Part shown: positions 11,661 through 24,000 of the stretch, one piece after another
Position numbering within the stretch: the stretch's first letter is position 1
Layout of the letters: the number at the start of each line of letters is the position of its first letter
Source: Clostridia bacterium
GTDB lineage: Bacteria > Bacillota > Clostridia > UMGS1810
NCBI GenBank assembly: GCA_045546535.1
Contig: JAZQDA010000173.1
Coordinates: 20,116 to 44,115, forward strand
Direction: 5' to 3'
Length of the DNA stretch: 24,000 nt
Position numbers and translations under genes: made by a program
Notes under the pieces: model-generated
What the model was told of the DNA's origin: nothing
Seen by the model: the letters and a program-made list of their open reading frames with translations, nothing else
Databases searched by the model: none

Positions 11661-12346
11661 TTGAATTAAATGCTGAAATTCAAATCAAGAAAGAAAACAA
11701 ATACCCGTTTCGCATTGGGTTTAGCAAACTTGGAGAAGATTTATTCGGAAAAGATATTGATAGAACGGAAAAAATCAATAAAAGAAATATACTTTCTTTG
11801 GATAGCGAAATTAGGGATAGAGCAGAAAAAAACAAGCCAAATTTTGGTTTGATTTCAAGTGGTGGTGCTTTATCTTTCAAGGACAACAATAAGGTTTTCT
11901 TGAAATATGCAAACACAAAACTTTTAGACGGAAACGAAAAGGTGTTGGTGTTTTTGGAAAACAAACTCGCAAAAAACAGAGAAAAAGTTGGCGAATATTA
12001 CACCCAAAATTGGAAATATGACAACAATAATGGAGTCGTTTCCGTTTCTCTAATAGATGGTCTTGAAGATATGCAAAATAAAAATATTGGAGATATAAGT
12101 TTGCTGAACGAGCAAGAAGAAAAAACTCTTTACGATTTTTATTTGATGGTCAAGGCAAGTTTGGAAGAAAATGGATATAAATTGAAAGAAATCAGCGAAA
12201 ATCTCACCGAGTTTATGAAAAATGTTTCCGTTAAATATCCTTATTTTTCAAGAAATTCCGCTTGGAATTATTTGCTTAAAATATCTACCGCTTGTATGGC
12301 TAATTCCTATAAAGGTAAAGATGGTTTGATTTATACTATGGAGTAA
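11657..12346 (+). CDS. Hypothetical tail-tip/baseplate protein (Tal position, part 1), AT-rich
   Basis: 229 aa, with a GTGA overlap with the Dit-like gene. G+C drops abruptly. The call is positional only. Confidence 0.5.
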   Translation: MIELNAEIQIKKENKYPFRIGFSKLGEDLFGKDIDRTEKINKRNILSLDSEIRDRAEKNKPNFGLISSGGALSFKDNNKVFLKYANTKLLDGNEKVLVFLENKLAKNREKVGEYYTQNWKYDNNNGVVSVSLIDGLEDMQNKNIGDISLLNEQEEKTLYDFYLMVKASLEENGYKLKEISENLTEFMKNVSVKYPYFSRNSAWNYLLKISTACMANSYKGKDGLIYTME

Positions 12347-12350
12347 TATT

Positions 12351-13790
12351 ATGCCTATTATAATTAAAAGCAAAAATATTTTTTCTGTTGAAAATGAAAA
12401 GTTTACTAATGCAGTAAAAGATGCGCGGATAGAAGAAACAGCTTTTTCAACAAATCAAGCCCAACAAATTTTTAGCATAAACTTGGAATACAAAAGAACA
12501 GAAACGGGGTTAAGCGAATTTGGCAAATCCGAGGGGTATCAAAACATCTCTTTCTTTCAAGGGGACGGAGATTATAACCGATATGTTCAATTCAGTTTTG
12601 AAACAGAACTTAACGAAAAAATTTTCTTGTTAAGAAACGCCAAAGTAAAATTGTCTTTGACTGGAGAGGAATACAACCCAAACAACATAGACGATGATGA
12701 AAATGGCTCTGTTGACGATAATGAATATAACGACCAATATTCTTTTACAAATTCATACGATAGCCAAATTGGAAGCAATATATTTTTTTCTATTATCAAA
12801 AAAGAAGAAGATTTTAAGCCAATCGGGATTTATGCAACAGTAGGAATATATAGGTTATCAAGGAATAAAGCGAAAATCTTTGTTGTTTTGCCATATTACT
12901 ATGATAATTCATATTCGTATCTTACAAGGACATATAAGAGAGCCGAAATATACTTGTGCGCTGATGAACAGATTACTAATTCTGTTGGGGAAGATGGAAG
13001 TTTTCTTCAAATAAGTAACAACGAAATTATAAATGAAACAACAATCGTTTCGGAAACAACAAAAACGCCGAGCGAAACTCCAAGTTGGTTTTTGAAAATA
13101 AGACAATCTTCCGATTTTTATGGAAGTGGAAGTTATTACTACTTTGTTAATGATAAAGAAGAAAGTTCGTCTTTTATATCATCAAGTATTGGCACAAATG
13201 ATGTTAGATTTAGCATCTACAATTTTTATTCAAACACCAATCTTTCTTTCAGCGAAGAAACAATTTCAAAATTGAAAAATTGCAAGATAGAGTGCAACGG
13301 ATTTTTAATTTCTGCAAGCGTTTCCGAAACAACTCAAAATATGGGGGACGGAAACAAAATAACTGTAAATGTTCCAGACGAGGAATGGGAAAAAACTGGA
13401 AAAACTCTTTCGGAGTTTAGAGGAGCAGAAAAAACTTTTTATTTTGATTATTTTGTTGGAGGAGAAGAAACTACAACAACGGAAAAAATATCCGAATTTA
13501 TAAGAAGAAAAGTTGTTGGGGAGTGGCAAAGAGGAAAAGAAAGTTCCAAAATGCTTTGCTCAATTTCAGATTACTATAATGAAAATGGTGAAAAAATCAT
13601 TGATATAAAAAGCGAGAAGATGTCTTTTAATATCGGCGAAAATGTAATTCCTATGGTTTTTGGAGAAAACAGAATTGACCGCCCTATGTCAAAAAACGCA
13701 GACGGAAGCGCAAAGGTTTTCCGCGTTTGTGGTATAAAGTTCATTTATGACGGCGCGGTTTGGCAAGAATTAACTTTACAAGAGGTTTGA
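12351..13790 (+). CDS. Hypothetical tail-tip/baseplate protein (Tal position, part 2), AT-rich
   Basis: 479 aa, rich in N/S/E/K/Y. Sampled 60-nt lines have about 20-30 percent G+C. The call is positional only. Confidence 0.5.
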   Translation: MPIIIKSKNIFSVENEKFTNAVKDARIEETAFSTNQAQQIFSINLEYKRTETGLSEFGKSEGYQNISFFQGDGDYNRYVQFSFETELNEKIFLLRNAKVKLSLTGEEYNPNNIDDDENGSVDDNEYNDQYSFTNSYDSQIGSNIFFSIIKKEEDFKPIGIYATVGIYRLSRNKAKIFVVLPYYYDNSYSYLTRTYKRAEIYLCADEQITNSVGEDGSFLQISNNEIINETTIVSETTKTPSETPSWFLKIRQSSDFYGSGSYYYFVNDKEESSSFISSSIGTNDVRFSIYNFYSNTNLSFSEETISKLKNCKIECNGFLISASVSETTQNMGDGNKITVNVPDEEWEKTGKTLSEFRGAEKTFYFDYFVGGEETTTTEKISEFIRRKVVGEWQRGKESSKMLCSISDYYNENGEKIIDIKSEKMSFNIGENVIPMVFGENRIDRPMSKNADGSAKVFRVCGIKFIYDGAVWQELTLQEV

Positions 13791-15937: not shown

Positions 15938-16111
15938 ATGAAATCAAGAACAGTAATATATGCTGACGAGGGAAAAGTCCTCACAAACGGCGAAATTTAC
16001 GGCAAGGAGATATTTCTTGCAGACGGAATGAGCGAATACCAATTCCACGAAATAACAGACAAGGAGTATGAAGAAATCCTTGCGGCGCAGAGCGCAGAAA
16101 GTGAATCATAA
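15938..16111 (+). CDS. Small hypothetical protein (57 aa)
   Basis: ATG at 15938 is preceded by AAGGAGG. The longer table ORF from 15854 overlaps the previous gene and has no SD. Confidence 0.55.
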   Translation: MKSRTVIYADEGKVLTNGEIYGKEIFLADGMSEYQFHEITDKEYEEILAAQSAESES

Positions 16112-16731
16112 TGCCTACTACGGAAGAAATCATTAACGAAAAAGCGAAAAAAATCGTTGAGGGCGAAATTGAGCCGATTGAAGGCGAAGTTTCAAAAAAG
16201 GAAACGCAATCGCAAGTACCAACGCTCCAAATCAATGGGGAAAAAACTCTTGAAGAACAGGCAAAGGATTTAGTTGGAGTTAAGGCAACAGAAAGAGCAA
16301 TCAATGACGAAATCTTAACGGACGGAGTTACCAACCGAAAGAAAGCCGAACTTTTGAGCCACGCCGAGGCTCACTTGAAAAAAGAACAAGCGGAAAACAA
16401 GAAAGCTGACATTCTTTTACAAGAAGCCAATCACGGCGTTTACGATGGAGTTGCCACATACGCAGGCATAAAAAAGGCTTTGCCGCAGAAAATGCAGAGC
16501 GTTCTTTTCCCAATTTTATCCGCAGTGCAAATCATTGTTCTTATTTTAATCGGCGTTCCGATAAGCATTGTGAACATTGTTTTGGATAGCGTTGACAGCG
16601 TTGTGCAAAAAATGCAGAATGTTACTCGGTCTGCTCGGTGGATTGTGCTTGGATTGATTATTTTTGGGATTTTTTGGGTCGCATTTTTGATTATAAAACA
16701 AATTCTATTACAACGAGGTATTTTTTTGTAA
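16111..16731 (+). CDS. Membrane protein, charged N-terminal half plus 2-3 C-terminal TM helices
   Basis: 206 aa. Hydrophobic stretches are VLFPILSAVQIIVLILIGVPISIVNIVL and WIVLGLIIFGIFWVAFLII. TAATG coupling to the previous gene. Confidence 0.6.
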   Translation: MPTTEEIINEKAKKIVEGEIEPIEGEVSKKETQSQVPTLQINGEKTLEEQAKDLVGVKATERAINDEILTDGVTNRKKAELLSHAEAHLKKEQAENKKADILLQEANHGVYDGVATYAGIKKALPQKMQSVLFPILSAVQIIVLILIGVPISIVNIVLDSVDSVVQKMQNVTRSARWIVLGLIIFGIFWVAFLIIKQILLQRGIFL

Positions 16732-16737
16732 AACTCA

Positions 16738-16766
16738 TTGACAAAGCCAAAATTCGGTGCTATAAT
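16738..16766 (+). promoter_or_regulatory. Perfect consensus sigmaA/sigma70 promoter with extended -10
   Basis: TTGACA at 16738-16743, an exact 17-nt spacer, TG at 16758-16759 and TATAAT at 16761-16766. It is intergenic, 29 nt upstream of the ATG at 16795. Confidence 0.7.
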
Positions 16767-16794
16767 TAAAATAAGAAAATATAAGGAGAGAAAA

Positions 16795-16980
16795 ATGCTT
16801 AAAGAGTTGTACGAATACAGAAAGGTTTTTGAAGCAGAACTTGTTAAGGCGCAAGCCCAAGTCGCGGTTGTCGATTTTATGATTGAAGCCGAGGAAAAGA
16901 AACTCGCGCAGAAAGCCGACACGGAGATTGTCGAGATTGAAAATGAGGTAGCGGAGCAACCCACGGACGAAAGTTATTAA
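16795..16980 (+). CDS. Small acidic coiled-coil protein (61 aa)
   Basis: ATG with SD AAGGAGAG. The table start at 16738 is the TTG of the -35 box and was rejected. Confidence 0.6.
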   Translation: MLKELYEYRKVFEAELVKAQAQVAVVDFMIEAEEKKLAQKADTEIVEIENEVAEQPTDESY

Positions 16981-16990
16981 GGGGGGATAA

Positions 16991-17341
16991 ATGATGTATA
17001 ATCACATCGTTGAAAACGCAATCGCGCAGATTGAAGCAACTCGCAATAGAGAAATTGAAGCGGCTCGTCAAAAGGCAACGCAAGAGGAAATCGTACCTTT
17101 TAATAGGGACATTGATGAGCATTTGAGAAATGCGATTGCAGAACTTCAAAAGCAACACAACGAAAAAATTGCAAATCTCCAAAAGGTTTTTGAGGCAGAA
17201 AAGGCATCTCTTGCCGAAGCCGCCGCGAAGAAGAAGGAGCAGTTTGCAGAAACCGCGCTTGCAACCGCCGTTTCCGTAATCAACGCAAAGGCAAACGAGA
17301 AGATTGCATATTTCAAGAAAGCCATTGACGAGGGGGCTTGA
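16991..17341 (+). CDS. Coiled-coil protein (116 aa), unknown function
   Basis: SD is GGGGGG. The sequence is an A/E/K-rich heptad-like helix throughout. Confidence 0.6.
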   Translation: MMYNHIVENAIAQIEATRNREIEAARQKATQEEIVPFNRDIDEHLRNAIAELQKQHNEKIANLQKVFEAEKASLAEAAAKKKEQFAETALATAVSVINAKANEKIAYFKKAIDEGA

Positions 17342-17343
17342 AA

Positions 17344-17796
17344 ATGAACGCGATTTTTGAAAATCAAGTTTCAGTTTATTGCATTATGGCAGTTTTGATT
17401 TTCGCACTTACGCAAGGTCTTAAATGGGCTTTTGTAAAGCCTTTCACGAACAAAATCAAGAACAAAAAGGTGAGAAAAGCGGTCAACACGACCATTTATT
17501 TCATTCCCTACGCCCTCGGCATTGGTTTTGAGTTTGTTTATTCCGTGATGATTATGCACGGCGAGTTCAACGCGGTTATGGGTATTATCCACGGCACTTC
17601 TGGCATTGCTTGCTACGGTGTGTTTGAGCGTTTTTACTCATTTATCACTGGCAAAAGTTCTAACATTGAAAACCCCTACGAAACAACCGAAACTGGTCGC
17701 GCTGTTCAAGAGCTTATGAAAAGCGTTTCCGAGGACGGCAAGTTTGACGAAAAAGACCACCCTGCGGTCACGGCGTTTCTTCAAAAAGTTAAGTAA
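17344..17796 (+). CDS. Holin candidate (three TM helices plus charged C-terminal tail)
   Basis: The ATG follows GAGGGGG. TM helices are VSVYCIMAVLIFALTQGLKWAF, IYFIPYALGIGFEFVYSVMIM and AVMGIIHGTSGIACYGVF, followed by a hydrophilic tail rich in E/D/K. Confidence 0.55.
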   Translation: MNAIFENQVSVYCIMAVLIFALTQGLKWAFVKPFTNKIKNKKVRKAVNTTIYFIPYALGIGFEFVYSVMIMHGEFNAVMGIIHGTSGIACYGVFERFYSFITGKSSNIENPYETTETGRAVQELMKSVSEDGKFDEKDHPAVTAFLQKVK

Positions 17797-18386
17797 TGAA
17801 GCCGATTAAAAAAGCAATAATTATATGTTGGGTTATGCTCGTTGCGTGTTTCGCTATCAAACTTTTCGGTGGAAACTAGTTTGATGCCGTTTGCACCAAC
17901 GAGCATTTTGTAAATATATGCAGAATAGTTGATAATAATTGGTTTTTATATTATCCCATCGGACTATCTTTATATGTTTTGTCTACTATTTTCGTAGTTT
18001 TATCAGTATCAAACTACAAAAGATTTAGTAAAAAAGGGTTTTTGACACTTATTTGTGTTTTAATTTTATTGTGGTCAACACAATTTATTTCATCTACAAC
18101 AAAATTTTTCGCAGACACTTTGTTTTTGATTTTTTCTCCGTTGGTAATACATTTAATACAAGAGAAAAATATTAAAAGTGTTATAAAAAGAAACTGGTAT
18201 AAAGGAATATTTTGTTTTTTAATAACATTTATATTCCAATTTATATCATTAGTAACAAAAAATGTTGGCATAAAAATAACAGACGATAGCACACTTGTAA
18301 CTGCAATATTGCTAATTGATTATTATATTATGATAATTCTATACTATCTGTATATGAAAAAATCAAAGGAGGGGAAAAATGGGTAA
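17796..18386 (+). pseudogene. Polytopic membrane protein ORF interrupted by one in-frame TAG (17877-17879); pseudogene or amber read-through gene
   Basis: The ATG at 17796 overlaps the holin stop (TAATG). The same frame stays open to 18386 apart from the TAG. The 135-aa table ORF has only a TTG start without an SD, and no ATG until near its end. Confidence 0.5.
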
Positions 18387-18528
18387 CTTTGGATTGCTTT
18401 TCTTTAGCGAGAGAATCGCACAACTCAAAGCGTTCCGCGCCACCCTTACCGACCCTGCACAGATTGCAGATGTTGATAGGGAAATCGCGGCTCTCGAAGC
18501 CAAGCAAGCAGAAAAGCAGGGCGAGTAA
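18379..18528 (+). CDS. Small peptide gene (49 aa), hydrophobic N-terminus and charged C-terminus
   Basis: Strong SD AAAGGAGGGG at 18366-18375 with ATG at 18379. The stop overlaps the next ATG (TAATG). Sequence: MGNFGLLFFSERIAQLKAFRATLTDPAQIADVDREIAALEAKQAEKQGE. Confidence 0.55.
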   Translation: MGNFGLLFFSERIAQLKAFRATLTDPAQIADVDREIAALEAKQAEKQGE

Positions 18529-19067
18529 TGAGTTGGCGAGTTAAGTTTCGGCTCTTTCAAGTGGCGACTTACGGGATAGTGTTTGCGACTATTGCGCTGA
18601 TGGCGGTTGTCACGGGAAAATACATTGAAACAATCGGTTTGTTTGTCAGTTTTGTTTCTTTGCGATACGCGTTTGAAAAGACTTGGCACTCAAAGTCGTT
18701 TTGGCGGTGCATTTTCATAAGTTGCGTTGTGTTTGTGGTGGCGATAGCATTTGTGCCGAATAAGGGCGTGAGCCTTTTGTCTTGCGTTGCTTTCGGCTTG
18801 TGCATTGACTATGTTGCTTACAAATACAAGGACTACGAAGATATACGCCTTGAATTATACAAGCCGTTCAATGTTGACACTTGCACAAGAGCCGAACTCT
18901 TAACTCGTTGCAGACAAGTCGGTTTATCCGAGGAAAACACGGAACTCGCGGTTGAGTTCTTTATTAAGAAAACCAAACAAAGCGAAATCGCAGACTGCCT
19001 TTGCATTAACGAGAAATCTGTGCAAATCCGAAAGAAGCGATTGCGACAAAAACTTAATAAAAATTGA
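18528..19067 (+). CDS. Membrane-anchored HTH protein: N-terminal 4-TM domain with AgrB-like H-x2-S-x3-C-x3-S motif fused to a sigma-70 region-4/LuxR-type HTH
   Basis: There are four hydrophobic helices in residues 1-100, including LRYAFEKTWHSKSFWRCIFIS. The C-terminus LSEENTELAVEFFIKKTKQSEIADCLCINEKSVQIRKKRLRQKL fits the region 4.2 HTH pattern. Confidence 0.65.
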   Translation: MSWRVKFRLFQVATYGIVFATIALMAVVTGKYIETIGLFVSFVSLRYAFEKTWHSKSFWRCIFISCVVFVVAIAFVPNKGVSLLSCVAFGLCIDYVAYKYKDYEDIRLELYKPFNVDTCTRAELLTRCRQVGLSEENTELAVEFFIKKTKQSEIADCLCINEKSVQIRKKRLRQKLNKN

Positions 19068-19105
19068 GATTGTATCCCTTTTGTGGGTGTGCAATCTCTT
19101 TTTTT
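19066..19105 (+). terminator. Rho-independent terminator
   Basis: A 9-bp stem pairs gagattgta (19066-19074) with tgcaatctc (19090-19098). Inner ccc/ggg pairing is also possible. A T7 run follows at 19099-19105. Confidence 0.7.
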
Positions 19106-19155
19106 ATTGCTAAAATGAGGGCAGAAAACAAAATAAATAACAAAGGAGAAACGCT

Positions 19156-19704
19156 ATGAACTACTATCCGTATTCTTCGCCGTATGGAGCGCAAAACAGA
19201 GCGCAGTATGGCGTTCCGTCCTATGGGGGCTATAACTACACTCCCCAACCCCAACAAATGCCCGTACAGCCCCAAAATCAGCCCCAAGCGCAACCTCAAT
19301 ACGAAATGCCAATACAATATGTAGGAAACGGAACACTAAAAGAAGCAGAAGCATATATATTGTTCCCAAGCCAAAAAGCATTTTTCATAGACAAATCAAA
19401 CGGAATGGTTTATGAGAAAGTTTGCGGTCAAGACGGGCAATCGTTTATTTCTCGCTTTAAGAGAATTGACGACACCGACGAAAACAAACCCGCAGAAAAA
19501 GAAAATCCCTCGCAACCCGATTTCAAGGATTTCGTTAAGTTGCAGGATATAAACAAGTTTGGATTTGCCACGATGGACGATATTAAAAATCTTGGATTTG
19601 CAACAATGGAGCAAGTCAAGGAACTTTCGCAGAAAATTGATACTCTACAAAATCAAAGAACGGGGGTAAAACAGAATGTCGGAACAAGCAAACCACAAGT
19701 GTGA
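19156..19704 (+). CDS. Q/P/Y-rich low-complexity N-terminus protein with small globular core and duplicated C-terminal motif
   Basis: SD is AAAGGAGA. Residues 1-55 are YPYSSPYGAQ...PQPQQMPVQPQNQPQAQPQYE. The motif GFATM(D/E)xxK occurs twice. Confidence 0.7.
   Translation: MNYYPYSSPYGAQNRAQYGVPSYGGYNYTPQPQQMPVQPQNQPQAQPQYEMPIQYVGNGTLKEAEAYILFPSQKAFFIDKSNGMVYEKVCGQDGQSFISRFKRIDDTDENKPAEKENPSQPDFKDFVKLQDINKFGFATMDDIKNLGFATMEQVKELSQKIDTLQNQRTGVKQNVGTSKPQV
19558..19623 (+). repeat. Tandem 33-nt (11-codon) duplication inside the 19156 gene
   Basis: tttggatttgccacgatgga at 19558-19577 versus cttggatttgcaacaatgga at 19591-19610. These encode FGFATMDDIKN and LGFATMEQVKE. Confidence 0.6.
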
Positions 19705-19819
19705 TTGCGGTAGCGCAAAAAAGATAAAATCTCTTGAAGCCCAAGTGTCAATTTTGAAAACTATGGTTGACGGGCTTTGCAAAGAACTCTCCACTTTGAG
19801 AAGGGCGGTAAGAAAATGA
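19676..19819 (+). CDS. Small coiled-coil protein (47 aa) with CxC motif
   Basis: The ATG follows GGGGG and overlaps the end of the previous gene. Its stop overlaps the next ATG (ATGA). It is below the ORF-table size cutoff. Confidence 0.45.
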   Translation: MSEQANHKCDCGSAKKIKSLEAQVSILKTMVDGLCKELSTLRRAVRK

Positions 19820-20058
19820 ATTGCGGTTACGATGTAAATCAAGCGTTGCAAAACCTTTTCGCTATGAAAAACGCAGGGCGCAACCCCCAACAAATTATGC
19901 AACTGCTCATTCAGCAAAATCCTCAAATCAAAAACACGCTCGGTACTCTGCAAAATATGGCGCAGGGCAAGTCGCCAAAGGAGTTTTTCTCCCAACTCGC
20001 TCGGCAAAACGGCGTGAACGAACAGAATATGGCTCAACTTATGGCTATGTTCCAATAA
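19816..20058 (+). CDS. Q/N/M-rich helical protein (80 aa)
   Basis: ATG at 19816 is coupled to the upstream small ORF. The table start at 19777 is a non-ATG codon without an SD. Confidence 0.6.
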   Translation: MNCGYDVNQALQNLFAMKNAGRNPQQIMQLLIQQNPQIKNTLGTLQNMAQGKSPKEFFSQLARQNGVNEQNMAQLMAMFQ

Positions 20059-20103
20059 TGGTATCGGCAACGGACTTTCAAGCGCGCAGAAAGAATGTTG
20101 TTT

Positions 20104-20112
20104 TGATATAAT
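20104..20112 (+). promoter_or_regulatory. Extended -10 promoter candidate (TGaTATAAT)
   Basis: TG at 20104-20105 and TATAAT at 20107-20112, in the intergenic gap 25 nt upstream of the ATG at 20137. No good -35 box was found. Confidence 0.4.
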
Positions 20113-20136
20113 TTATTTTTAAGGAGAATAACTAAT

Positions 20137-20880
20137 ATGTCTGGTTATTACGAAGGCGATTTGTGCCTTTCTAATGGAAACTCCAACAACGGTTGGAATG
20201 ATTGGTCTTGGATTATCGGACTTGCGCTTGTAGGCGGTTTGTTCGGTGGTTGGGGCAACGGCTTTGGCGGTGGCTTCGGCGGCGGTCGTGGTGGCTTCGG
20301 CTATCCTTGCTTTGATGCTCCTGCCACCCAAGCAGACCTCGCGGCTGGCTTCAACAACTCTGCCGTTCTGTCCTCGCTGAACGACATCAAACTCGGTCAG
20401 GCGCAGGCAATCAACTACAACAACCAAGGTTTCAGCGGTCTTAACGCAACCATCAACGCAGGTTTCAGCGGCGTTGACAACGCAATCTGCACCCTTGGCT
20501 ATCAGCAAGCACAACTTGTGAACGGTCTTTCCCGTGAACTCGCTGATTGTTGCTGTGCCACACAGCGTGCCATTGACAGTGTTAAATTTGAGAACTGCCA
20601 AAACACTGCGGCTATCGTAAACGCAAGCAACGCCAACACCCGTGCAATCCTTGATTTCCTCACGGGCGAGAAGATTGCGGCTCTGCAAGCCGAGAACAGC
20701 GGTTTGAAGGCGCAGATTTCCAATGACCGCCAATCGGCGTATATCATTGATGCACTCGCTCCGAAGTGCCCTCAGCCCGCTTTCGTCGTTCAGCCGCCTC
20801 AGCAAGTGACTTTCCCCACTAACTGTTGCGGCAATGTGGCATACGCTGGCTACGGCGCGTGCGGCGCAAGCGTTCAGTAA
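20137..20880 (+). CDS. Glycine-rich, cysteine-rich membrane/secreted protein (247 aa)
   Basis: SD is AAGGAGA. A TM-like segment is followed by a Gly run: WIIGLALVGGLFGGWGNGFGGGFGGGRGGFG. Cys clusters are CCC, NCCG and ACG. Codon usage is strongly biased and the gene is flanked by its own promoter and terminator. Confidence 0.75.
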   Translation: MSGYYEGDLCLSNGNSNNGWNDWSWIIGLALVGGLFGGWGNGFGGGFGGGRGGFGYPCFDAPATQADLAAGFNNSAVLSSLNDIKLGQAQAINYNNQGFSGLNATINAGFSGVDNAICTLGYQQAQLVNGLSRELADCCCATQRAIDSVKFENCQNTAAIVNASNANTRAILDFLTGEKIAALQAENSGLKAQISNDRQSAYIIDALAPKCPQPAFVVQPPQQVTFPTNCCGNVAYAGYGACGASVQ

Positions 20881-20929
20881 TCAAAACTGAATAATCGAAA
20901 CGAGGACTAATTATCCTACCAAATTCCAA

Positions 20930-20962
20930 GGGGCAGGGGCAACAGTCCTTGCCCCCACTTTT
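20930..20962 (+). terminator. Rho-independent terminator
   Basis: A 9-bp GC-rich stem pairs ggggcaggg (20930-20938) with ccttgcccc (20947-20955), with one G-U pair. The loop is 8 nt and TTTTT follows at 20958-20962. Confidence 0.7.
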
Positions 20963-20979
20963 TATAAGGAGAAAACGAA

Positions 20980-21429
20980 ATGTTACTGATTGGCACTAAA
21001 AATATTGGCACGCAGACCGTACTTGCGGACGGCGTTGTCAACATCGGCACTACCTACCGCAAGTTCTGCAAAAGAAATCGTTGCGGCGTTCCCACTTTTG
21101 GCGTGACCGCCAACGGCGTAACCCTCAACACCGAGGGCATTTACCACATCACCGCGGTTTTTGTTGGTAGCGGCTCTGCGGCAGGCGACCTTACTATTGC
21201 GCTTGCGCTCAATGGCGTTCTTGTGGACGGCGCGGTTTCCACCCAGACCATCACCACGGCTGACACCGAAATCCGCACTTGGGTTATCGACTACTACGCC
21301 AAGGTTGACACCGATTGCGTTCTCGGCGTGACAAGCACCGATGCGCAGACTGTTTCCTTTGTGAATACGAGCGAAGCCATTGATGCAACTTTCACGAGCG
21401 TGGTTGTAAACATCGACAAGGTGGTATAA
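20980..21429 (+). CDS. Stand-alone BclA C-terminal-like (C1q/TNF-like jelly-roll) domain protein
   Basis: GIYHITAVFVGSGSAAGDLTIALALNGVLVDG ... SVVVNIDKV resembles the remembered B. anthracis BclA C-terminal domain pattern GFYKITVIAN...LTIQVNGVPVPG ... SIIIEKV. Confidence 0.55.
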   Translation: MLLIGTKNIGTQTVLADGVVNIGTTYRKFCKRNRCGVPTFGVTANGVTLNTEGIYHITAVFVGSGSAAGDLTIALALNGVLVDGAVSTQTITTADTEIRTWVIDYYAKVDTDCVLGVTSTDAQTVSFVNTSEAIDATFTSVVVNIDKVV

Positions 21430-21433
21430 GGCT

Positions 21434-22243
21434 ATGGACGAGAGAATGATGTATGACGGGCGCAGACTTCCCCCTCGCAACTCTCGCGGTGAGTTTATGA
21501 GCCGTGGGCGTGGCAGAGGTCGGCGCGGCGACAGAGGTATGGACTACGGAGATATGCGCGGCGATATGCGTATGCGCGATGGTCGCGTTATCCGCAGTTA
21601 TCCCACTATGCACCCCCAAGGCGACTACGGCGATATGAACTACGATATGGAGCGTGGTGGCAGAGGTCGCGGAGGTAGAAGCCGTGGCGATTATGGCGAC
21701 TATCGTGGCGATATGCGCGGTGGCGACTACGCTATGGACGGTCATTATCCGCAGGGTCAAGGCGCAACCTACTATCCCATTCAAGCAATGGGAACTTTTG
21801 AGGGTTATTATGGTATGCCTGAACAAGATTACGCGCGTGGGCGCGATTACGGCTACGATATGCGTGGCGGCTATGGTCGCCGCGACTACGGCGATTACGG
21901 CTATGACGATTACGGCGATTTCGGCGAAACGCTTTCCACCGAGGAGCTTAAAAGGTGGGAACACAAACTTATGGAGCAACTTGACGAGCGCGAGAAGCAG
22001 ATGTTCCACAAGGACACCATTATGCAGAAAATCAAGCAAATGGGAAAGCCGATGGAAGGTTTCGGGGAAAAGGAACTTTACACGGCAACCCTCATGGTCT
22101 ACACCGACTATAAGCAAAGTATCGGCGCAAATCCCGACCTAGCCGTGAAACTCGCCTATGATTGGCTTTCCGACAAGGATGTTGCCGTCAAGGGCGCGGA
22201 AAAACTCGCCGTTTACTACGATTGCATCGTTGAGGGCGAATAA
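21434..22243 (+). CDS. RG/DY-rich intrinsically disordered N-terminal region (about 160 aa) fused to a helical C-terminal domain
   Basis: Recurring units are RGRGRGRRGDRG, GDYGDYRGDMRGGDY and RRDYGDYGYDDYGDFG. An ordinary helical sequence follows from ETLSTEELKRWEHKL onward. Confidence 0.75.
   Translation: MDERMMYDGRRLPPRNSRGEFMSRGRGRGRRGDRGMDYGDMRGDMRMRDGRVIRSYPTMHPQGDYGDMNYDMERGGRGRGGRSRGDYGDYRGDMRGGDYAMDGHYPQGQGATYYPIQAMGTFEGYYGMPEQDYARGRDYGYDMRGGYGRRDYGDYGYDDYGDFGETLSTEELKRWEHKLMEQLDEREKQMFHKDTIMQKIKQMGKPMEGFGEKELYTATLMVYTDYKQSIGANPDLAVKLAYDWLSDKDVAVKGAEKLAVYYDCIVEGE
21491..21930 (+). repeat. Low-complexity coding repeats (GGCGA(C/T)TACGG / CGCGG(C/T)GATATGCG variants)
   Basis: Imperfect short direct repeats are visible at the DNA level. 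They generate long spurious ORFs in other frames and on the minus strand. Confidence 0.6.
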
Positions 22244-22617
22244 TGGCGGCTTTCCGTTATTACAATCGTAACGATGACCCAACAATTCACCGAAACGATT
22301 GTGTAACAAGGGCAATTTCCCTTGCAAGTGGCTTGCCGTATTCAGAGATAAGGCGAAAACTCCGTAATACGGCAAGTTTACTTGATTGCGAGAGTTCATT
22401 GTGCCCTACTTGCTATTCCTTCCTCATTCAAGAAGTGTTGGGCGGTGTTCCGAAAGATTGTTACGGAATGACAGTTGGAGAATTTGCCGACAAACATTCA
22501 AATGGGACTTACCTTATAAGAATATCGGGACACCTAACTTGCCTCATAGACGGAATTTTATATGACTTGTGGAATTGTCTTGATAAGCCGTGTTCGCTTG
22601 CTTGGGAAATTCGCTAA
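22243..22617 (+). CDS. Small putative cysteine peptidase-fold protein (Cys20 / His97 / Asp103 or Asp108 candidates)
   Basis: NDCVTRAISLASGLPYSEI near the N-terminus and ISGHLTCLIDGILYDLW near the C-terminus fit the papain/C39/CHAP-like Cys...His...Asp order. TAATG coupling to the upstream gene. Confidence 0.4.
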   Translation: MAAFRYYNRNDDPTIHRNDCVTRAISLASGLPYSEIRRKLRNTASLLDCESSLCPTCYSFLIQEVLGGVPKDCYGMTVGEFADKHSNGTYLIRISGHLTCLIDGILYDLWNCLDKPCSLAWEIR

Positions 22618-22630
22618 AATTGAATAAAAG

Positions 22631-22661
22631 GCAAGGTTGACAAAAACGACCTTGCTTTTTT
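22631..22661 (+). terminator. Rho-independent terminator closing the late/cargo transcription unit
   Basis: The stem pairs gcaaggttg (22631-22639) with cgaccttgc (22647-22655), one of the nine pairs being G-U. The loop is 7 nt, a T6 run follows at 22656-22661, and an A-tract lies upstream. Confidence 0.75.
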
Positions 22662-22697
22662 GTTATATATGCACTAATAATTTTTATTGAAAAACTA

Positions 22698-22726
22698 TTG
22701 ACAAATTCCATAAGTTGTGGTAGAAT
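22698..22726 (+). promoter_or_regulatory. Near-consensus sigmaA/sigma70 promoter with extended -10 (early promoter candidate)
   Basis: TTGACA at 22698-22703, a 17-nt spacer, TG at 22718-22719 and TAGAAT at 22721-22726. SD AAGGAGG and the ATG at 22751 follow. Confidence 0.7.
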
Positions 22727-22750
22727 AGTGGCAAGAAAGGAGGTAGCCCG

Positions 22751-22882
22751 ATGAAAAAAGTTGTTAGCGTTTGCTTGTCAAACGAAGTCCACGAAAAGGC
22801 GAAGAAAGAAGCGGTGAGTATGGGAATGAATGTGAGCGCGTTTATTTCAATGCTAATCGCAAATTACAAAAGAAAGGGTTAA
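22751..22882 (+). CDS. Ribbon-helix-helix (CopG/Arc-like) small DNA-binding protein, 43 aa
   Basis: MKKVVSVCLSNEVHEKAKKEAVSMGMNVSAFISMLIANYKRKG fits a beta strand (VSVCL), helix, G-x-S/N turn, helix layout. Strong SD. First gene after the promoter. Confidence 0.6.
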   Translation: MKKVVSVCLSNEVHEKAKKEAVSMGMNVSAFISMLIANYKRKG

Positions 22883-22886
22883 GACA

Positions 22887-23003
22887 ATGCTGAAATTTTA
22901 CGGAAAACCGCACGAACTGCGAGAATATCTTAAAAGCCTTGCGGAGAAGTACGGAAAAAACGAAACAATGTTTTCGGTGTATAACAAAATGAAACAGGAG
23001 TGA
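22887..23003 (+). CDS. Small hypothetical protein (38 aa)
   Basis: ATG at 22887 fills the gap between the RHH gene and the 23008 ORF. It is charged and helical. Support is weak: a short ORF with a weak SD. Confidence 0.35.
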   Translation: MLKFYGKPHELREYLKSLAEKYGKNETMFSVYNKMKQE

Positions 23004-23007
23004 AAAA

Positions 23008-23223
23008 ATGAAAAGAATTGAAAACCATTGCATAGGTTGCGCTGACGACACCGCGTACCGTTGTATGGGAAACCGTTGCCCCAAAAGAAATGTTGCGGTT
23101 TATTATTGTGACGAGTGCGACCCAAACCTAAATTGTCCGTTGGACGAGGTTTTTTCTGTGGACGGAAAAGAAATTTGCGAGGATTGTTTGAAGGAAAAAT
23201 TTAGAAAGAGGGTGTTTGAATGA
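23008..23223 (+). CDS. Cysteine-rich zinc-binding small protein (71 aa)
   Basis: Cys pairs are CIGC, C..C (CMGNRC), CDEC and CEDC, suggesting two zinc-ribbon knuckle pairs. Confidence 0.6.
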   Translation: MKRIENHCIGCADDTAYRCMGNRCPKRNVAVYYCDECDPNLNCPLDEVFSVDGKEICEDCLKEKFRKRVFE

Positions 23224-23465
23224 CGGCAGACGAATTTTTGGTATCGCGCTTTCTTGAAATGGAACGGCAAAACGCCGCGCTGAAAGAGGAACTAAACCGA
23301 GTTCGCGGTCATTATGAGAACTGCGAAAACGCGCTGAACATAATGTACAAGCATATGGAGTTTGGCGCAGAGGGAGTTCATTTCTTTATCCCCAATTTCG
23401 GTCAGTGTATTGTCGATGCAAAGAAAATTGCCGATTATTTTGGCAAAAAGTTGGAGAGGGAATAA
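23220..23465 (+). CDS. Hypothetical protein (81 aa)
   Basis: ATGA overlap with the upstream gene. The N-terminal half is helical. No motif recognised. Confidence 0.55.
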   Translation: MTADEFLVSRFLEMERQNAALKEELNRVRGHYENCENALNIMYKHMEFGAEGVHFFIPNFGQCIVDAKKIADYFGKKLERE

Positions 23466-23469
23466 CGCC

Positions 23470-24000
23470 GTGTCTAATTATTATGACGAGGAATCCCACA
23501 AGTATTATGTTGACGGAGTAGAAAAGCCAAGCGTAACAGAAATTGCAAATCCCATTTCGTTTGAACGGTTGGATGCTTTGCAAAAGCACATTGTTGAAAA
23601 AGCAAAAGAGCGCGGAAAGCGTTGCCACGAATTGTTTGAGCAGTATTTGCTTTTGGGCGAACTTGACCCCGAAGAAATTGAAACGGAGTATTTTCTGTAT
23701 GTTCAACAATTTGTTCTTTGGGCGAAAACCTACCGTCCAAAAGTTCTTTTCACCGAGAAAAAACTGTATGGAGAGGCATTTTGCGGAACGGCTGACCTCA
23801 TCTGCGTGATTGACGGAAAGTTGATTATCGTGGACTACAAGGTGACAAGCGCAATCGACAAGAAAAGTCTTTCCGTTCAGTTAGAGGGATACTACCGACT
23901 TTGCAAGAAAATCGGTCTTGAAATTGAGGATTGCTATTTCTTGCACATAAAAAAGGACAGTTATGTGTTCAAGCCCATTAAGCGAGATGCCGAGTGGTTT
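23470..24000 (+). CDS. PD-(D/E)XK (RecB/Cas4-like) nuclease, 3-prime partial
   Basis: GTG start follows GGAGAGGG. The frame stays open to the window end, so it is absent from the ORF table. Motifs are KPSVTEI, GTADLI, VDYK (D-x-K) and QLEGY (QxxxY). Confidence 0.7.
   Translation, partial: MSNYYDEESHKYYVDGVEKPSVTEIANPISFERLDALQKHIVEKAKERGKRCHELFEQYLLLGELDPEEIETEYFLYVQQFVLWAKTYRPKVLFTEKKLYGEAFCGTADLICVIDGKLIIVDYKVTSAIDKKSLSVQLEGYYRLCKKIGLEIEDCYFLHIKKDSYVFKPIKRDAEWF

Follow-up and report, generated by a model that had tools for sequence, protein, structure and literature searches.

What a compact group of genes for low-complexity and cysteine-rich proteins does in a phage genome is the question raised by seven open reading frames, A to G, in a 24,000-nucleotide stretch of a Clostridia bacterium contig (the window). 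The original prediction described them as phage-carried cargo, perhaps modifying the spore or cell surface of the host. We found that the genes are neither unrelated nor loose: together they make up a late cassette, conserved and self-contained, in the genome of an uncultured gut siphophage, and their order is fixed across phage contigs. The features of the locus are as follows.

18528..19067, +, AgrB-like/HTH gene, conserved partner upstream of the cassette
19066..19106, +, upstream terminator (hairpin 19066-19098, then a U-run), which closes the preceding tail and membrane-protein operon
19108..19116, +, predicted extended -10 promoter for genes A to D, TGcTAAAAT
19156..19704, +, gene A, 182 aa
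19676..19819, +, gene B, 47-aa coiled-coil peptide with a CxC motif
19777/19816-20058, +, gene C, Q/N/M-rich helical protein, 80 aa counted from the ATG
20137..20880, +, gene D, 247 aa, signature protein of the cassette
20903..20965, +, conserved leader of E, directly 5' of its Shine-Dalgarno site
20980..21429, +, gene E, 149 aa, predicted stand-alone TNF/C1q-like jelly roll (BclA-CTD/ExsFA-like fold)
21434..22243, +, gene F, 269 aa, disordered R/G/D/Y/M-rich region of ~165 aa, then a C-terminal helical DUF7841
22243..22617, +, gene G, 124 aa, putative papain-like Cys-His-Asp enzyme with a Cys-rich insert
22626..22668, +, terminator at the downstream end of the cassette, 14-pair stem and T-run
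22698..22726, +, strong sigma-70-type promoter, TTGACA-17-TAGAAT with TG, 11/12 matches

Boundaries and conservation of the cassette

All seven reading frames lie where they had been placed, flanked by two strong terminators. The upstream hairpin and U-run fold with -18.1 kcal/mol (z -6.9 vs shuffles), and relatives have a hairpin and T-run at the equivalent position with differing stem sequences; the downstream hairpin (22626-22660) gave a z of -4.7 vs shuffles. Immediately 3' of the upstream T-run, a TGnTAAAAT-like element is found in eight of the nine loci with this junction. It was missing from the sigma-70 scan list because there is no -35 at this site. With its terminators and predicted conserved extended -10, the cluster behaves as a transcription unit of its own, and good Shine-Dalgarno sites precede A and E. 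The promoter proposed downstream was confirmed; it drives the next, early-type gene block and is a boundary marker outside the cassette. Two points of the original prediction had to be corrected, since a third, internal terminator-like hairpin (20930-20955) lies between D and E, and the conserved block reaches upstream past the first terminator to the AgrB-like/HTH gene. Residue counts for A, C, D, F and G agreed with the unusual compositions described. The raised G+C content was seen over positions 20000-22000 (0.50-0.57, compared to 0.30-0.35 in the AT-rich islands of the window), but not for genes A to C (0.41-0.42).

The cassette runs AgrB-like/HTH, terminator, A, (B), C, D, hairpin leader, E, F, G, terminator, and 27 related phage-size contigs share the order (AgrB-like/HTH)-A-C-D-E-F-G. 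The block is kept in 14 IMG/VR loci, in L003 and in 12 of 13 MAG-binned loci; L026 has E and F only. Tail genes upstream of the block are mostly without recognizable conservation in the same loci. More distant versions that retain A, C and D are found in C. perfringens phage CPD1 and in gut phages of lemurs and rodents (Dulem viruses 33, 35 and 36, bajarodcaudo virus 5). The genomic position of the cassette is not fixed: it is located between portal and capsid genes in Dulem virus 35, and among non-structural genes ~4 kb past the lysis genes in CPD1. When compared to relatives in L018 and L019, the cassette genes showed purifying selection, with dN/dS values of 0.4 for A, 0.2-0.3 for C, 0.26-0.28 for D, 0.10-0.13 for F, 0.08-0.16 for G and 0.05 for E, the most constrained. 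The reading frames are therefore real genes.

Beside the cassette, an AgrB-type peptidase is fused to an HTH. The N-terminal half of this protein is an AgrB-type membrane peptidase domain with 3-4 TM segments (Pfam AgrB, residues 7-91, 32.4 bits, above the cut-off of 23; E 7.5e-8), and the C-terminus is a sigma-70 region-4/LuxR-type HTH (NCBIfam sigma70-ECF region 4 at residues 132-178). H54 and C61 are the sole invariant residues among 13 homologues, and their H-x6-C spacing is that of the AgrB catalytic pair. In 15 loci, this gene keeps its synteny with the cassette.

Genes A to D

Protein A begins with a disordered stretch of ~50 aa (residues 1-52: Q 21%, P 19%, Y 17%), continues into a small conserved domain and has a duplicated helical motif at its C-terminus. 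It matches phrog_21718 (E 2.7e-6), and its family HMM matched CPD1, Dulem viruses 33, 35 and 36 and bajarodcaudo virus 5 (E 2e-18 to 7e-9). By tblastn, B was found only in L018 (49% identity), and a 58-aa gene is called at its position in L038; on this sequence comparison B appears confined to close relatives and is probably not a core component. C (Q 19%, N 14%, M 9%) was seen in 23 loci, always immediately 5' of D, and its family HMM matched CPD1 (4e-10) and bajarodcaudo virus 5 (3e-6).

D carries, from its N-terminal side, a conserved MxYxEGDxP motif, a hydrophobic Gly-zipper segment (G 39% over residues 20-60), an N/Q-rich repeat region, an invariant CCC, a coiled coil and a proline-rich tail with a Cys at its end. 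The hydrophobic segment is borderline as a transmembrane helix (Kyte-Doolittle 1.28). There are 11 Cys, including the CCC at 138-140, and G42, C138-140, S195 and Q199 are invariant in alignment A4. D matches phrog_16490 (8.7e-29) and phrog_9288 (1.7e-8) and has more than 7,169 relatives, with homologues in C. perfringens, Klebsiella and crAss-like phages as well as 178 enterobacterial phage records. In all four enterobacterial phages examined, D follows a gene in tail-fibre or receptor-binding position or is fused behind a tail-fibre chaperone domain. Klebsiella phage RCIP0096 (phrog_16490/9288) and Drexlerviridae PaulSarasin encode it after their lateral tail fibre. In a T5-like phage its predecessor is a large gene without annotation that occupies the position of the receptor-binding protein, and in Seuratvirus KurtStettler it is fused behind sequence of a tail fibre and an S74-type chaperone. 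In Dulem virus 36, D likewise follows a receptor-binding protein gene, and in crAss-like cr109_1 its homologue gp64 comes after a tail protein and a holin.

Gene E and its RNA leader

Three elements make up the leader of E: an invariant AGGA-N5-10-TATCCT (20903-20917), a hairpin (20930-20955) that is GC-rich and covaries, and a U-run. The AGGA-N5-10-TATCCT motif occurs once in the window and, across loci, in the D-E interval only. Pairing in the hairpin reaches 99.5% of cells, with compensatory changes at seven of nine pairs and a covariation score of 0.44, compared to 0.15 or less in slid controls. UCCU pairs with the Shine-Dalgarno site of E in the minimum-energy fold and with the upstream AGGA in the centroid. 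The leader had no Rfam match.

An AlphaFold2 model of E (pLDDT 86, pTM 0.81) indicates a TNF/C1q-like jelly roll. Foldseek against the PDB placed BclA-CTD at the top (3twi, 1wck, 2r6q; E 4e-8; TM 0.66-0.74), then F-BclA 9h38, ExsFA 7r1m and BxpB 8d02, and then EDA, 4-1BBL and C1q. E had been described as a BclA C-terminal-like jelly roll; the model bears out the fold with confidence, but no sequence, collagen-stalk or leader-peptide tie to BclA, a spore-surface protein of anthrax, or to F-BclA and ExsFA/BxpB was found. The 464 close relatives are nearly all of 147-149 aa, and the family consists of stand-alone proteins of 130-150 aa that carry no collagen stalk or exosporium leader.

Genes F and G

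Residues 1-165 of F contain G 22%, R 17%, D 14%, Y 13% and M 10%, with a near-neutral net charge of the repeat. The C-terminal match to Pfam DUF7841 (E 2.9e-4) falls just short of the cut-off; the orthologue in L003 has a precomputed, unmarked DUF7841 match. The family HMM of F matched cr109_1 gp65 (2e-19), which adjoins the D homologue gp64.

The start of G overlaps the stop of F by one base. G (8 Cys, 3 His) matches phrog_3754 (5.6e-19), and C20, H97 and D108 are invariant. In the model (pLDDT 92.5), C20 lies at a helix start, H97 at a strand start and D108 at the end of the next strand. This arrangement, as in papain-like enzymes, supports the proposed Cys-His peptidase-like character at the level of a model. 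The model had no significant PDB match; it weakly resembles Tae4 amidase, and its fold is common to 22 uncharacterised phage proteins and widespread in phages with non-sporulating hosts. Tsamsa-like Bacillus phages and Geobacillus phage GBK2 encode homologues of G amid early genes, distinct from the endolysin. No hydrophobic signal peptide was found in A, C, E, F or G.

Less likely roles: spore surface, membrane or condensate

The cassette is unlikely to serve the spore surface. It was proposed to remodel the coat, exosporium or cell surface of a spore-forming host through BclA/ExsF-like and Cys-/Tyr-rich coat-like proteins, which we now consider highly improbable, even though exosporium proteins are the top structural matches of E and the absent signal peptides are compatible with assembly in the mother-cell cytoplasm. 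No cassette protein belongs to a spore family by sequence (no BclA_C, exosporium leader, CotY/ExsY/CdeC-type or other coat model matched), the family of E lacks the stalk and leader, and the TNF/C1q fold is also common in viral fibre knobs. Homologous clusters do occur in other phages, including C. perfringens CPD1, but all genomic matches were phage-size contigs and none was a sporulation locus. Nor are the families restricted to spore formers, since D, F and G occur in phages of Bacteroidales (crAss-like, with D and F together), Klebsiella, E. coli, Salmonella, Pseudomonas and Prevotella. Some cassette variants encode a beta-rich protein of ~125-139 aa whose N-terminus carries a Cys cluster; we take this protein to resemble endospore-appendage subunits. 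Only phages of Firmicutes (including the spore former C. perfringens) or of unknown hosts yielded the full A-C-D-E/E'-F set, a result that leaves some room for a spore-related role. With every gene on one strand and no lysogeny genes visible in the window, a conversion role expressed from a prophage is without support.

A late function directed at the membrane is unlikely, but less so. The glycine zipper of D would sit in the cytoplasmic membrane and act with neighbouring holin-like proteins and the AgrB-like peptidase in lysis timing, breach of outer layers or a block of superinfection, with E, F and G as accessories. The cassette follows membrane-protein or holin genes in the window, a holin and C39-like peptidase in bajarodcaudo virus 5, a PGRP amidase in Dulem virus 33, and a holin and LysB-like gene in cr109_1. 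No recognizable endolysin was found in the window or within 10 kb on either side of D in L038, and G, as a Cys-His-Asp enzyme with a weak likeness to Tae4 amidase, could be the missing wall hydrolase; its early-gene homologues in Bacillus and Geobacillus phages speak against this. The build of D (hydrophobic N-terminus, coiled coil, Cys, Pro-rich tail) is reminiscent of spanins, but D is also conserved in C. perfringens, where fusing an inner with an outer membrane as spanins do would be meaningless, and the Gly-rich segment of enterobacterial D is not very hydrophobic. The exclusion lipoproteins Cor and Llp reportedly lie among the genes after receptor-binding genes in T1-/T5-type phages (PMC5238451), but T1-type phages already have holin, endolysin and spanin elsewhere (PMC5238451). 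We regard as very unlikely that A (Q/P/Y), C (Q/M) and F (RG/DY) phase-separate into a condensate or viral factory that concentrates assembly or replication components, with D as membrane tether. The disorder is extreme and conserved in composition: the A family retains Q/P/Y-rich N-termini, F-position proteins of Dulem viruses 33 and 35 and cr109_1 retain R/G/D/Y-rich stretches despite differing sequences, and A, C and F are under purifying selection. However, this argument is one of composition; the TNF-like trimer, the CCC coiled coil and the link to tail-fibre genes stay unexplained, and the near-neutral F repeat argues against simple nucleic-acid coacervation.

A possible stalk-plus-knob assembly

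Our best guess, which we hold tentatively, is a late, cytoplasmic stalk-plus-knob assembly linked to the adsorption apparatus or cell envelope and not to spores; it is close to the fallback of the original prediction, a self-assembling structure made in infection. Several observations count against it. No annotation places a cassette protein in a virion or complex, and all four PHROG families matched by A, D and G are listed as 'unknown function'. In KurtStettler, D lies past the predicted self-cleavage site of the chaperone and would not stay on the mature fibre. The tail-fibre-like genes of the window lie ~5 kb away from D, and membrane-protein genes and a terminator intervene. E is conserved far beyond usual receptor-binding knobs, the segment of D is only borderline transmembrane, and the cassette changes position in Dulem virus 35 and CPD1. 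In its favour are the synteny of the block beside mostly unconserved tail genes, the remote versions of A, C and D, the fold and very low dN/dS of E, D behind or fused to genes in tail-fibre or receptor-binding position, and F adjoining D in cr109_1. The absent signal peptides, the cassette's own terminators and predicted -10, and the covarying leader hairpin also fit, as does the docking of a proline-rich leader into clefts of the ExsF trimer (PMC12357932).

In such an assembly, the proteins would be made late in infection, in the cytoplasm. D would be a trimeric coiled-coil stalk with its CCC triplets on the axis and its Gly-zipper end buried in the membrane or a partner; judging from its composition, the small Q/M-rich C may be a holdase that keeps this end soluble until assembly. 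We infer that a trimer of E would dock onto the proline-rich tail of D, in the way that ExsF receives a proline-rich leader from BclA or F-Anchor. The resulting unit would be like BclA or a viral fibre, yet built from separate chains. Disordered A and F may act as scaffolds or glue, G may trim or cross-link one component, and the hairpin leader may determine how much of E, F and G is made relative to A-D. Late in the cycle, as infection ends, the product would most likely serve the adsorption apparatus or cell envelope; it could be an accessory fibre, a fibre-assembly aid or a receptor mask on debris.

A conserved gene cassette in the late region of a siphovirus-type phage

The window covers late genes of a siphovirus-type phage. 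Behind its head, tail and holin-like genes lie an AgrB-like/HTH gene and seven further genes, A to G, arranged as follows (percentages are residue contents):

13-1425, large terminase, then portal, scaffold and major capsid protein
8323-10287, tape measure, then tail proteins
16111-18386, three holin-like membrane-protein genes, after the tail genes
18528-19067, + strand, AgrB-like/HTH gene
19066-19106, left terminator
19156-19704, + strand, A, Q/P/Y-rich (residues 1-52: Q 21%, P 19%, Y 17%)
19676-19819, + strand, B, present only in close relatives
19816-20058, + strand, C, Q-rich and helical (Q 19%, N 14%, M 9%)
20137-20880, + strand, D, Gly run (residues 20-60: 39% Gly) and 11 Cys, including CCC at 138-140
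20903-20965, + strand, leader of E
20980-21429, + strand, E, putative jelly-roll protein
21434-22243, + strand, F, RG/DY repeats (residues 1-165: G 22%, R 17%, D 14%, Y 13%, M 10%)
22243-22617, + strand, G, small Cys-His peptidase-like protein with 8 Cys
22626-22668, right terminator
22698-22726, near-consensus promoter that opens the next block

We observed that ORF calls, all on the + strand, agree with the seven ORFs of the original prediction, and that the compositions it had described for A, C, D and F are borne out. Its two strong flanking terminators fold with z scores of -6.9 and -4.7 versus shuffled controls, and the early promoter it had placed beyond the cluster is there. The raised G+C that it had attributed to the cluster holds over D to F only (0.50-0.57). 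Compared with relatives whose synonymous sites are saturated or nearly so, dN/dS ranges from 0.05 (E) to 0.4 (A); A to G, the low-complexity ones included, are therefore real genes. Three - strand ORFs overlap D, E and F (20119-20805, 228 aa; 20983-21480, 165 aa; 21392-22117, 241 aa). Because homology and dN/dS back the + strand genes, we dismissed these as by-products of G+C-rich, low-complexity + strand coding.

The portal protein is at most 25% identical to any GenBank-phage protein and its matches are all gut-virome contigs; judged by sequence, the phage has no close cultured relative. Three or four holin-like membrane-protein genes are found in the window (16111-18386) and in a 51-kb relative (L038, 6000-8700), and between the tail and replication genes neither of the two has a recognisable endolysin domain. 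Islands of 0.30-0.35 G+C at 9500-10000, 11500-13500 and 18000-18500, against a window average of ~0.44, lie within the tape-measure and tail genes and over the gene for a 4-TM protein. The tail protein at 10296-11660 ends in a Listeria-Bacteroides repeat (Flg_new) domain (E 1.4e-9), a domain typical of surface adhesins. Contigs carrying the cassette were binned as Clostridia, Christensenellaceae, Oscillospiraceae and even Anaeroplasmataceae, although binning of phage contigs is unreliable.

The cassette is kept in order and moves between genomic positions

Loci for the comparison of gene order were retrieved via E. The order (AgrB-like/HTH)-A-C-D-E-F-G was found in 14 IMG/VR loci, one ENA contig and 12 of 13 MAG-binned contigs (tblastn), and the upstream tail genes are mostly not recognisably conserved in these E-retrieved loci. 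The shared order starts at the AgrB-like/HTH gene and the conserved block therefore crosses the left-hand terminator, which the original prediction had taken as the boundary of the cluster. A reading as mixed cargo does not hold either, given an order kept across phage contigs. Family HMMs built from the loci place A, C and D together in Clostridium perfringens phage CPD1 and four gut phages (Dulem viruses 33, 35 and 36 and bajarodcaudo virus 5), so that homologous clusters do occur in other phages, as had been proposed for checking. E is present in Dulem 33 and 35. The other three carry at its place a Cys-rich, beta-rich protein of 125-139 aa (E'), and different disordered proteins at the place of F. 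In two of these five remote-cassette phages a small sigma-region-4-like HTH gene lies directly upstream of A.

The cassette ends the late operon, after lysis or tail genes, in the window, bajarodcaudo 5, Dulem 33, Dulem 36 and the crAss-like phage cr109_1. In Dulem 35 it lies between the portal and capsid genes, and in CPD1 among non-structural genes ~4 kb past the lysis genes. It behaves as a mobile unit. Endonuclease-type genes occupy the same C-D junction in two unrelated phages, CPD1 (L001 5107-5730) and Dulem virus 33 (L037 5073-5624); the latter is annotated 'endonuclease', the former 'hypothetical protein' and HNH-like by sequence reading. In a 64-kb relative (L003), a Ro60/TROVE plus vWA gene (11579-13021, - strand) directly adjoins the cassette.

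All components are uncharacterised, belonging to PHROGs of 'unknown function' and one DUF. Against GenBank phages, neither whole-cluster DNA similarity nor tblastn of A, E and F returned a match. A Pfam scan of position-equivalent proteins in other phages gave none, the PADLOC anti-phage defence models matched no family among the ten proteins scanned, no source names any cluster member of the cassette families, and a literature search on the components found nothing. We rated the cassette as resembling two known designs, a fibre-with-knob appendage and a moron-like accessory unit. Like phage morons, it has its own predicted promoter, flanking terminators and locally different G+C, and its position varies (after lysis genes, after tail-fibre genes, inside the head module); unlike them, it is a co-evolving set of six to seven genes rather than a single gene, and it occurs in apparently virulent genomes. 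A bacteriocin/RiPP cluster was considered and rejected: crAss-like and enteric phages also have D and F, and neither a transporter nor a modification enzyme could be recognised in the scanned window proteins.

Protein E is predicted to share the BclA fold but not the BclA family

The AlphaFold2 model of E (pLDDT 86, 40 homologues) is all-beta, and its top Foldseek matches in the PDB are BclA C-terminal domains (3twi, 1wck, 2r6q, 2z5w; E 4e-8 to 4e-7, TM 0.66-0.74), followed by F-BclA, ExsFA/BxpB (7r1m, 8d02, 9h3d), EDA, 4-1BBL and C1q. By this ranking the original call of a BclA C-terminal-like jelly roll was correct, and we assign the modelled fold to the TNF/C1q-like jelly rolls. Viral fibre knobs usually have the TNF/C1q fold as well, and the phi812 central-spike knob appears among the structural matches at rank 50.

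Membership of the BclA family, in contrast to the fold, was not borne out. A Pfam scan of E at E<=1 returned no family and no BclA_C (PF18573), the NCBIfam exosporium leader (TIGR03720) is in no cassette protein, and a PDB profile search with the 40 homologues gave no match at E<=10. E is a 149-aa protein without a stalk; nearly all family representatives stand alone at 130-150 aa, and collagen repeats are lacking in the few that are longer. E shares with the C-terminal domain of BclA/F-BclA and with ExsFA/BxpB of the Bacillus exosporium the same jelly roll (TM 0.63-0.74), and with ExsFA/BxpB a stand-alone length of ~150 aa. It differs from both in lacking sequence similarity (Pfam, NCBIfam and PDB profile search all negative), from BclA in lacking a collagen-like stalk and exosporium leader, and from ExsFA/BxpB in its context, which is not sporulation or exosporium but phage-size contigs only.

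An exhaustive HMMER search of 1.8 billion representatives yielded only 191 clusters for the family. The 464 close relatives of E are almost all 147-149 aa and lie on phage-size contigs; the nearest genome is contig JAZOBE010000029.1, whose E is 95% identical. All 13 genome-collection matches were likewise phage-size MAG contigs, 12 of them with the same cassette order, so the proposed search for homologues in sporulation loci turned up phage contigs instead. A reading of E as a satellite capsid protein was discarded (no basic arm, no replication gene present). ExsF trimers dock proline-rich leaders (PMC12357932), and by analogy a trimer of E could dock a proline-rich peptide of a partner.

Viral fibres with knobs (adenovirus fibre, reovirus sigma1, PRD1 P5, phage tail-needle and central-spike knobs) likewise combine a trimeric coiled-coil or fibrous shaft with a jelly-roll knob. 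Here, in contrast, the candidate shaft, D, is encoded apart from the candidate knob, E, with a terminator-like hairpin between the two genes, and E is highly conserved rather than variable.

Protein D provides a tail-fibre lead

D matches phrog_16490 (8.7e-29) and phrog_9288 (1.7e-8), both 'unknown function' in PHROG, and has >7,169 relatives. An alignment of 23 diverse members shows a conserved N-terminal MxYxEGDxP followed by a hydrophobic Gly-zipper segment, N/Q-rich repeats that vary in number, an invariant CCC, a coiled coil, and a Pro-rich PxPAYVVPNP tail with a Cys at the end. Homologues occur in C. perfringens phages, two crAss-like phages and Klebsiella phages; the family HMM detects a protein of Klebsiella phage RCIP0096 (1.4e-11) and one of cr109_1 (3.5e-26) with the CCC aligned. 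Used as a query, the Klebsiella protein matched 178 GenBank phages, members of the Drexlerviridae, the Queuovirinae and the T5-like phages among them; their hosts are E. coli, Salmonella, Yersinia, Shigella and other Gram-negative bacteria. A reading of gene order in the T1-like phage SH6 indicates that the D cassette is absent from the T1 group.

In all four enterobacterial phages examined, the D-type gene lies beside genes for tail fibres or in receptor-binding position. It directly follows the lateral tail-fibre gene in RCIP0096 and PaulSarasin, and in Drexlerviridae and RCIP0096 it is a separate gene. In the T5-like Salmonella phage polluks (L046 4761-5351) it is split into two ORFs of 123 and 67 aa, apparently decaying, behind a large unannotated gene in receptor-binding-protein position. 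In the Escherichia phage KurtStettler, a Seuratvirus (L044 3975-5507), D forms the C-terminal 218 residues of a 510-aa protein. The N-terminal ~295 residues of this fusion match tail-fibre families at their C-terminal ends and carry an S74-type self-cleaving chaperone motif. In crAss-like phages D is annotated 'outer capsid protein/viral fiber'.

This tail-fibre neighbourhood is all that hints at a function for any member of the cassette. KurtStettler itself weakens the hint, because the D part of the fusion comes after the predicted chaperone cleavage site. In the window, D is neither directly after nor fused to a tail-fibre gene: it lies ~5 kb beyond the last tail-like genes, separated from them by three membrane-protein genes, the AgrB-like gene and a terminator. 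The names 'putative lateral tail fiber chaperone' and 'putative sugar-binding protein' used by BASEL are positional guesses that the BASEL paper does not justify. The phrog_9288 cassettes of Drexlerviridae and Queuovirinae share with ours a D with Gly-rich N-terminus, CCC, coiled coil and Pro-rich tail and, in RCIP0096, the one enterobacterial phage examined for it, a terminator-like hairpin after the gene. Small uncharacterised genes come next in the enterobacterial cassettes. Their partner genes are others (phrog_9157, 8329 and 7239), and homologues of A, C, E, F and G are lacking.

Protein G is a putative papain-like enzyme that travels with the cassette

The C-terminal domain of F is DUF7841. 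The F family HMM detects gp65 of cr109_1 (2e-19), which also has an R/G/D/Y-rich stretch and adjoins gp64, the D homologue. A ferritin-like reading of the F-position proteins of CPD1 and Dulem virus 36 was set aside (metal ligands not conserved). In the metagenome protein P0375 (240 aa), an F-type R/D/Y region plus DUF7841 is fused behind the N-terminal ~98 residues of E; it links genes E and F, and is probably a deletion or assembly artefact.

G is translationally coupled to F and belongs to phrog_3754, with ~3,525 relatives. Residues C20, H97 and D108 do not vary, whether 19 or 47 sequences are compared, and the model (pLDDT 92.5) places C20 at the start of helix 20-29, H97 at the start of strand 97-102 and D108 at the end of strand 105-108. 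This is the Cys/His/Asp order and placement of papain-like (clan CA-type) cysteine peptidases, consistent with the Cys-His peptidase-like character originally described, and G is a putative enzyme on the strength of the model. Among solved structures the model has no significant match, with Tae4 and Josephin found weakly. Its fold recurs in 22 uncharacterised proteins of a viral structure library, from phages of Pseudomonas, Sphingomonas, Cellulophaga, Enterococcus and other hosts, and in Bacillus and Geobacillus phages the gene is among the early genes. This wide spread and these early-gene contexts thus indicate a general phage accessory enzyme riding with the cassette. Searches of the PDB with the D, E, F and G sequences and the E, G and E' profiles gave nothing meaningful; matches to Tako8 and eL40 were low-complexity or Cys-spacing artefacts.

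An RNA leader and an AgrB-like/HTH gene may regulate the cassette

An extended -10 element, TGnTAAAAT, stands right after the T-run of the upstream terminator in eight of nine loci (window 19108-19116, predicted). Between D and E, an AGGA-N5-10-TATCCT motif (window 20903-20917) is invariant in every E-containing locus and absent elsewhere in the window and the loci. All aligned sequences but one also have a GC-rich hairpin with a U-run (window 20930-20955), in which seven of nine pairs show compensatory changes, 99.5% of alignment cells pair, and the covariation score is 0.44, versus <=0.15 with the partners slid. In the window RNA, UCCU can pair alternatively with the upstream AGGA or with the Shine-Dalgarno (SD) site of E. 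We infer that this suggests an anti-anti-SD/anti-SD/SD switch, or an attenuator setting the dose of E, F and G. A terminator-like hairpin after D is also found in CPD1, Dulem 33, 35 and 36, bajarodcaudo 5 and RCIP0096. Reading the AGGA motif as a sigma-H promoter fails on its spacing and on a GAAT that is not conserved. Rfam returned only a chance-level miRNA match over 17500-24000 (E 0.47); the leader fits no known RNA family, and is a candidate new cis-regulatory RNA.

The AgrB-like/HTH gene is syntenic with the cassette. Its membrane half passes the Pfam AgrB cut-off (32.4 bits vs 23) and its C-terminus is a sigma-70 region-4/LuxR-type HTH. In 13 homologues that are 20-44% identical, H54 and C61 are the only invariant residues. 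Their H-x6-C spacing is like that of the AgrB catalytic pair in staphylococcal work. The product resembles AgrB of staphylococcal and clostridial agr systems in its above-cut-off match and its invariant, equally spaced His/Cys pair. It differs in that its match leaves about half of the profile uncovered (matched: positions 24-111 of 185) and in its fusion to a sigma region-4-type HTH. The AgrD-like propeptide, AgrC and AgrA of agr systems are not seen in the window, with no agrD-, agrC- or agrA-like gene among the window ORFs or in the family scans. An attractive reading of the sequence is a membrane-tethered phage regulator that would be released or controlled by its own putative peptidase domain, possibly by self-processing. 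Such an AgrB-type peptidase-HTH fusion would add a new type of regulator, tethered to the membrane, to those found in phages.

Possible functions of the cassette

No cassette product has a signal peptide, and the proteins are therefore made, and presumably assembled, in the cytoplasm. Our best sketch, which we hold tentatively, is a split stalk-plus-knob assembly that, late in infection, would act on the adsorption apparatus or on the cell envelope. D would form a trimeric coiled coil with a Gly-zipper end, which C would hold soluble, and an E trimer would dock the Pro-rich tail of D, by analogy with ExsF and proline-rich leaders (PMC12357932). A and F, both disordered, may provide scaffolds, and G may be an enzyme that processes components. 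A membrane-directed function in lysis or exclusion, to which the holin neighbourhood and the missing endolysin would point, seems to us rather unlikely.

The spore-surface module of the original prediction we consider improbable: it draws on fold resemblance and composition only, the cassette proteins match no spore-coat or exosporium family in Pfam and NCBIfam (CotY/ExsY, CdeC), the context is purely phage, and D, F and G are also found in phages of non-sporulating hosts. A condensate appears equally doubtful, and what probability these four readings leave belongs to something else. More speculatively, and with low probability, the cassette may encode an unrecognised phage supramolecular structure: a CCC-motif coiled-coil stalk bearing a TNF/C1q-like trimer with disordered Tyr/Arg/Gln-rich glue proteins. 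Infected gut bacteria would assemble it in their cytoplasm as a coat resembling an exosporium or a fibre. A membrane-tethered AgrB-type peptidase/HTH protein and a new translational RNA leader would control it, and some of its parts (D and F) would be common to phages that infect Gram-positive and Gram-negative bacteria.

The results show that a phage protein with a BclA-like fold cannot be taken as evidence of spore biology. Should D and E form a split fibre and knob, or an assembly directed at the envelope, phages would have a new means of building or regulating their adsorption apparatus. The D, G and E families are without function or name and occur in human and animal gut phages, including crAss-like phages and common coliphage families. 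In conclusion, the function of the cassette, once known, would annotate a large slice of gut-virome dark matter.
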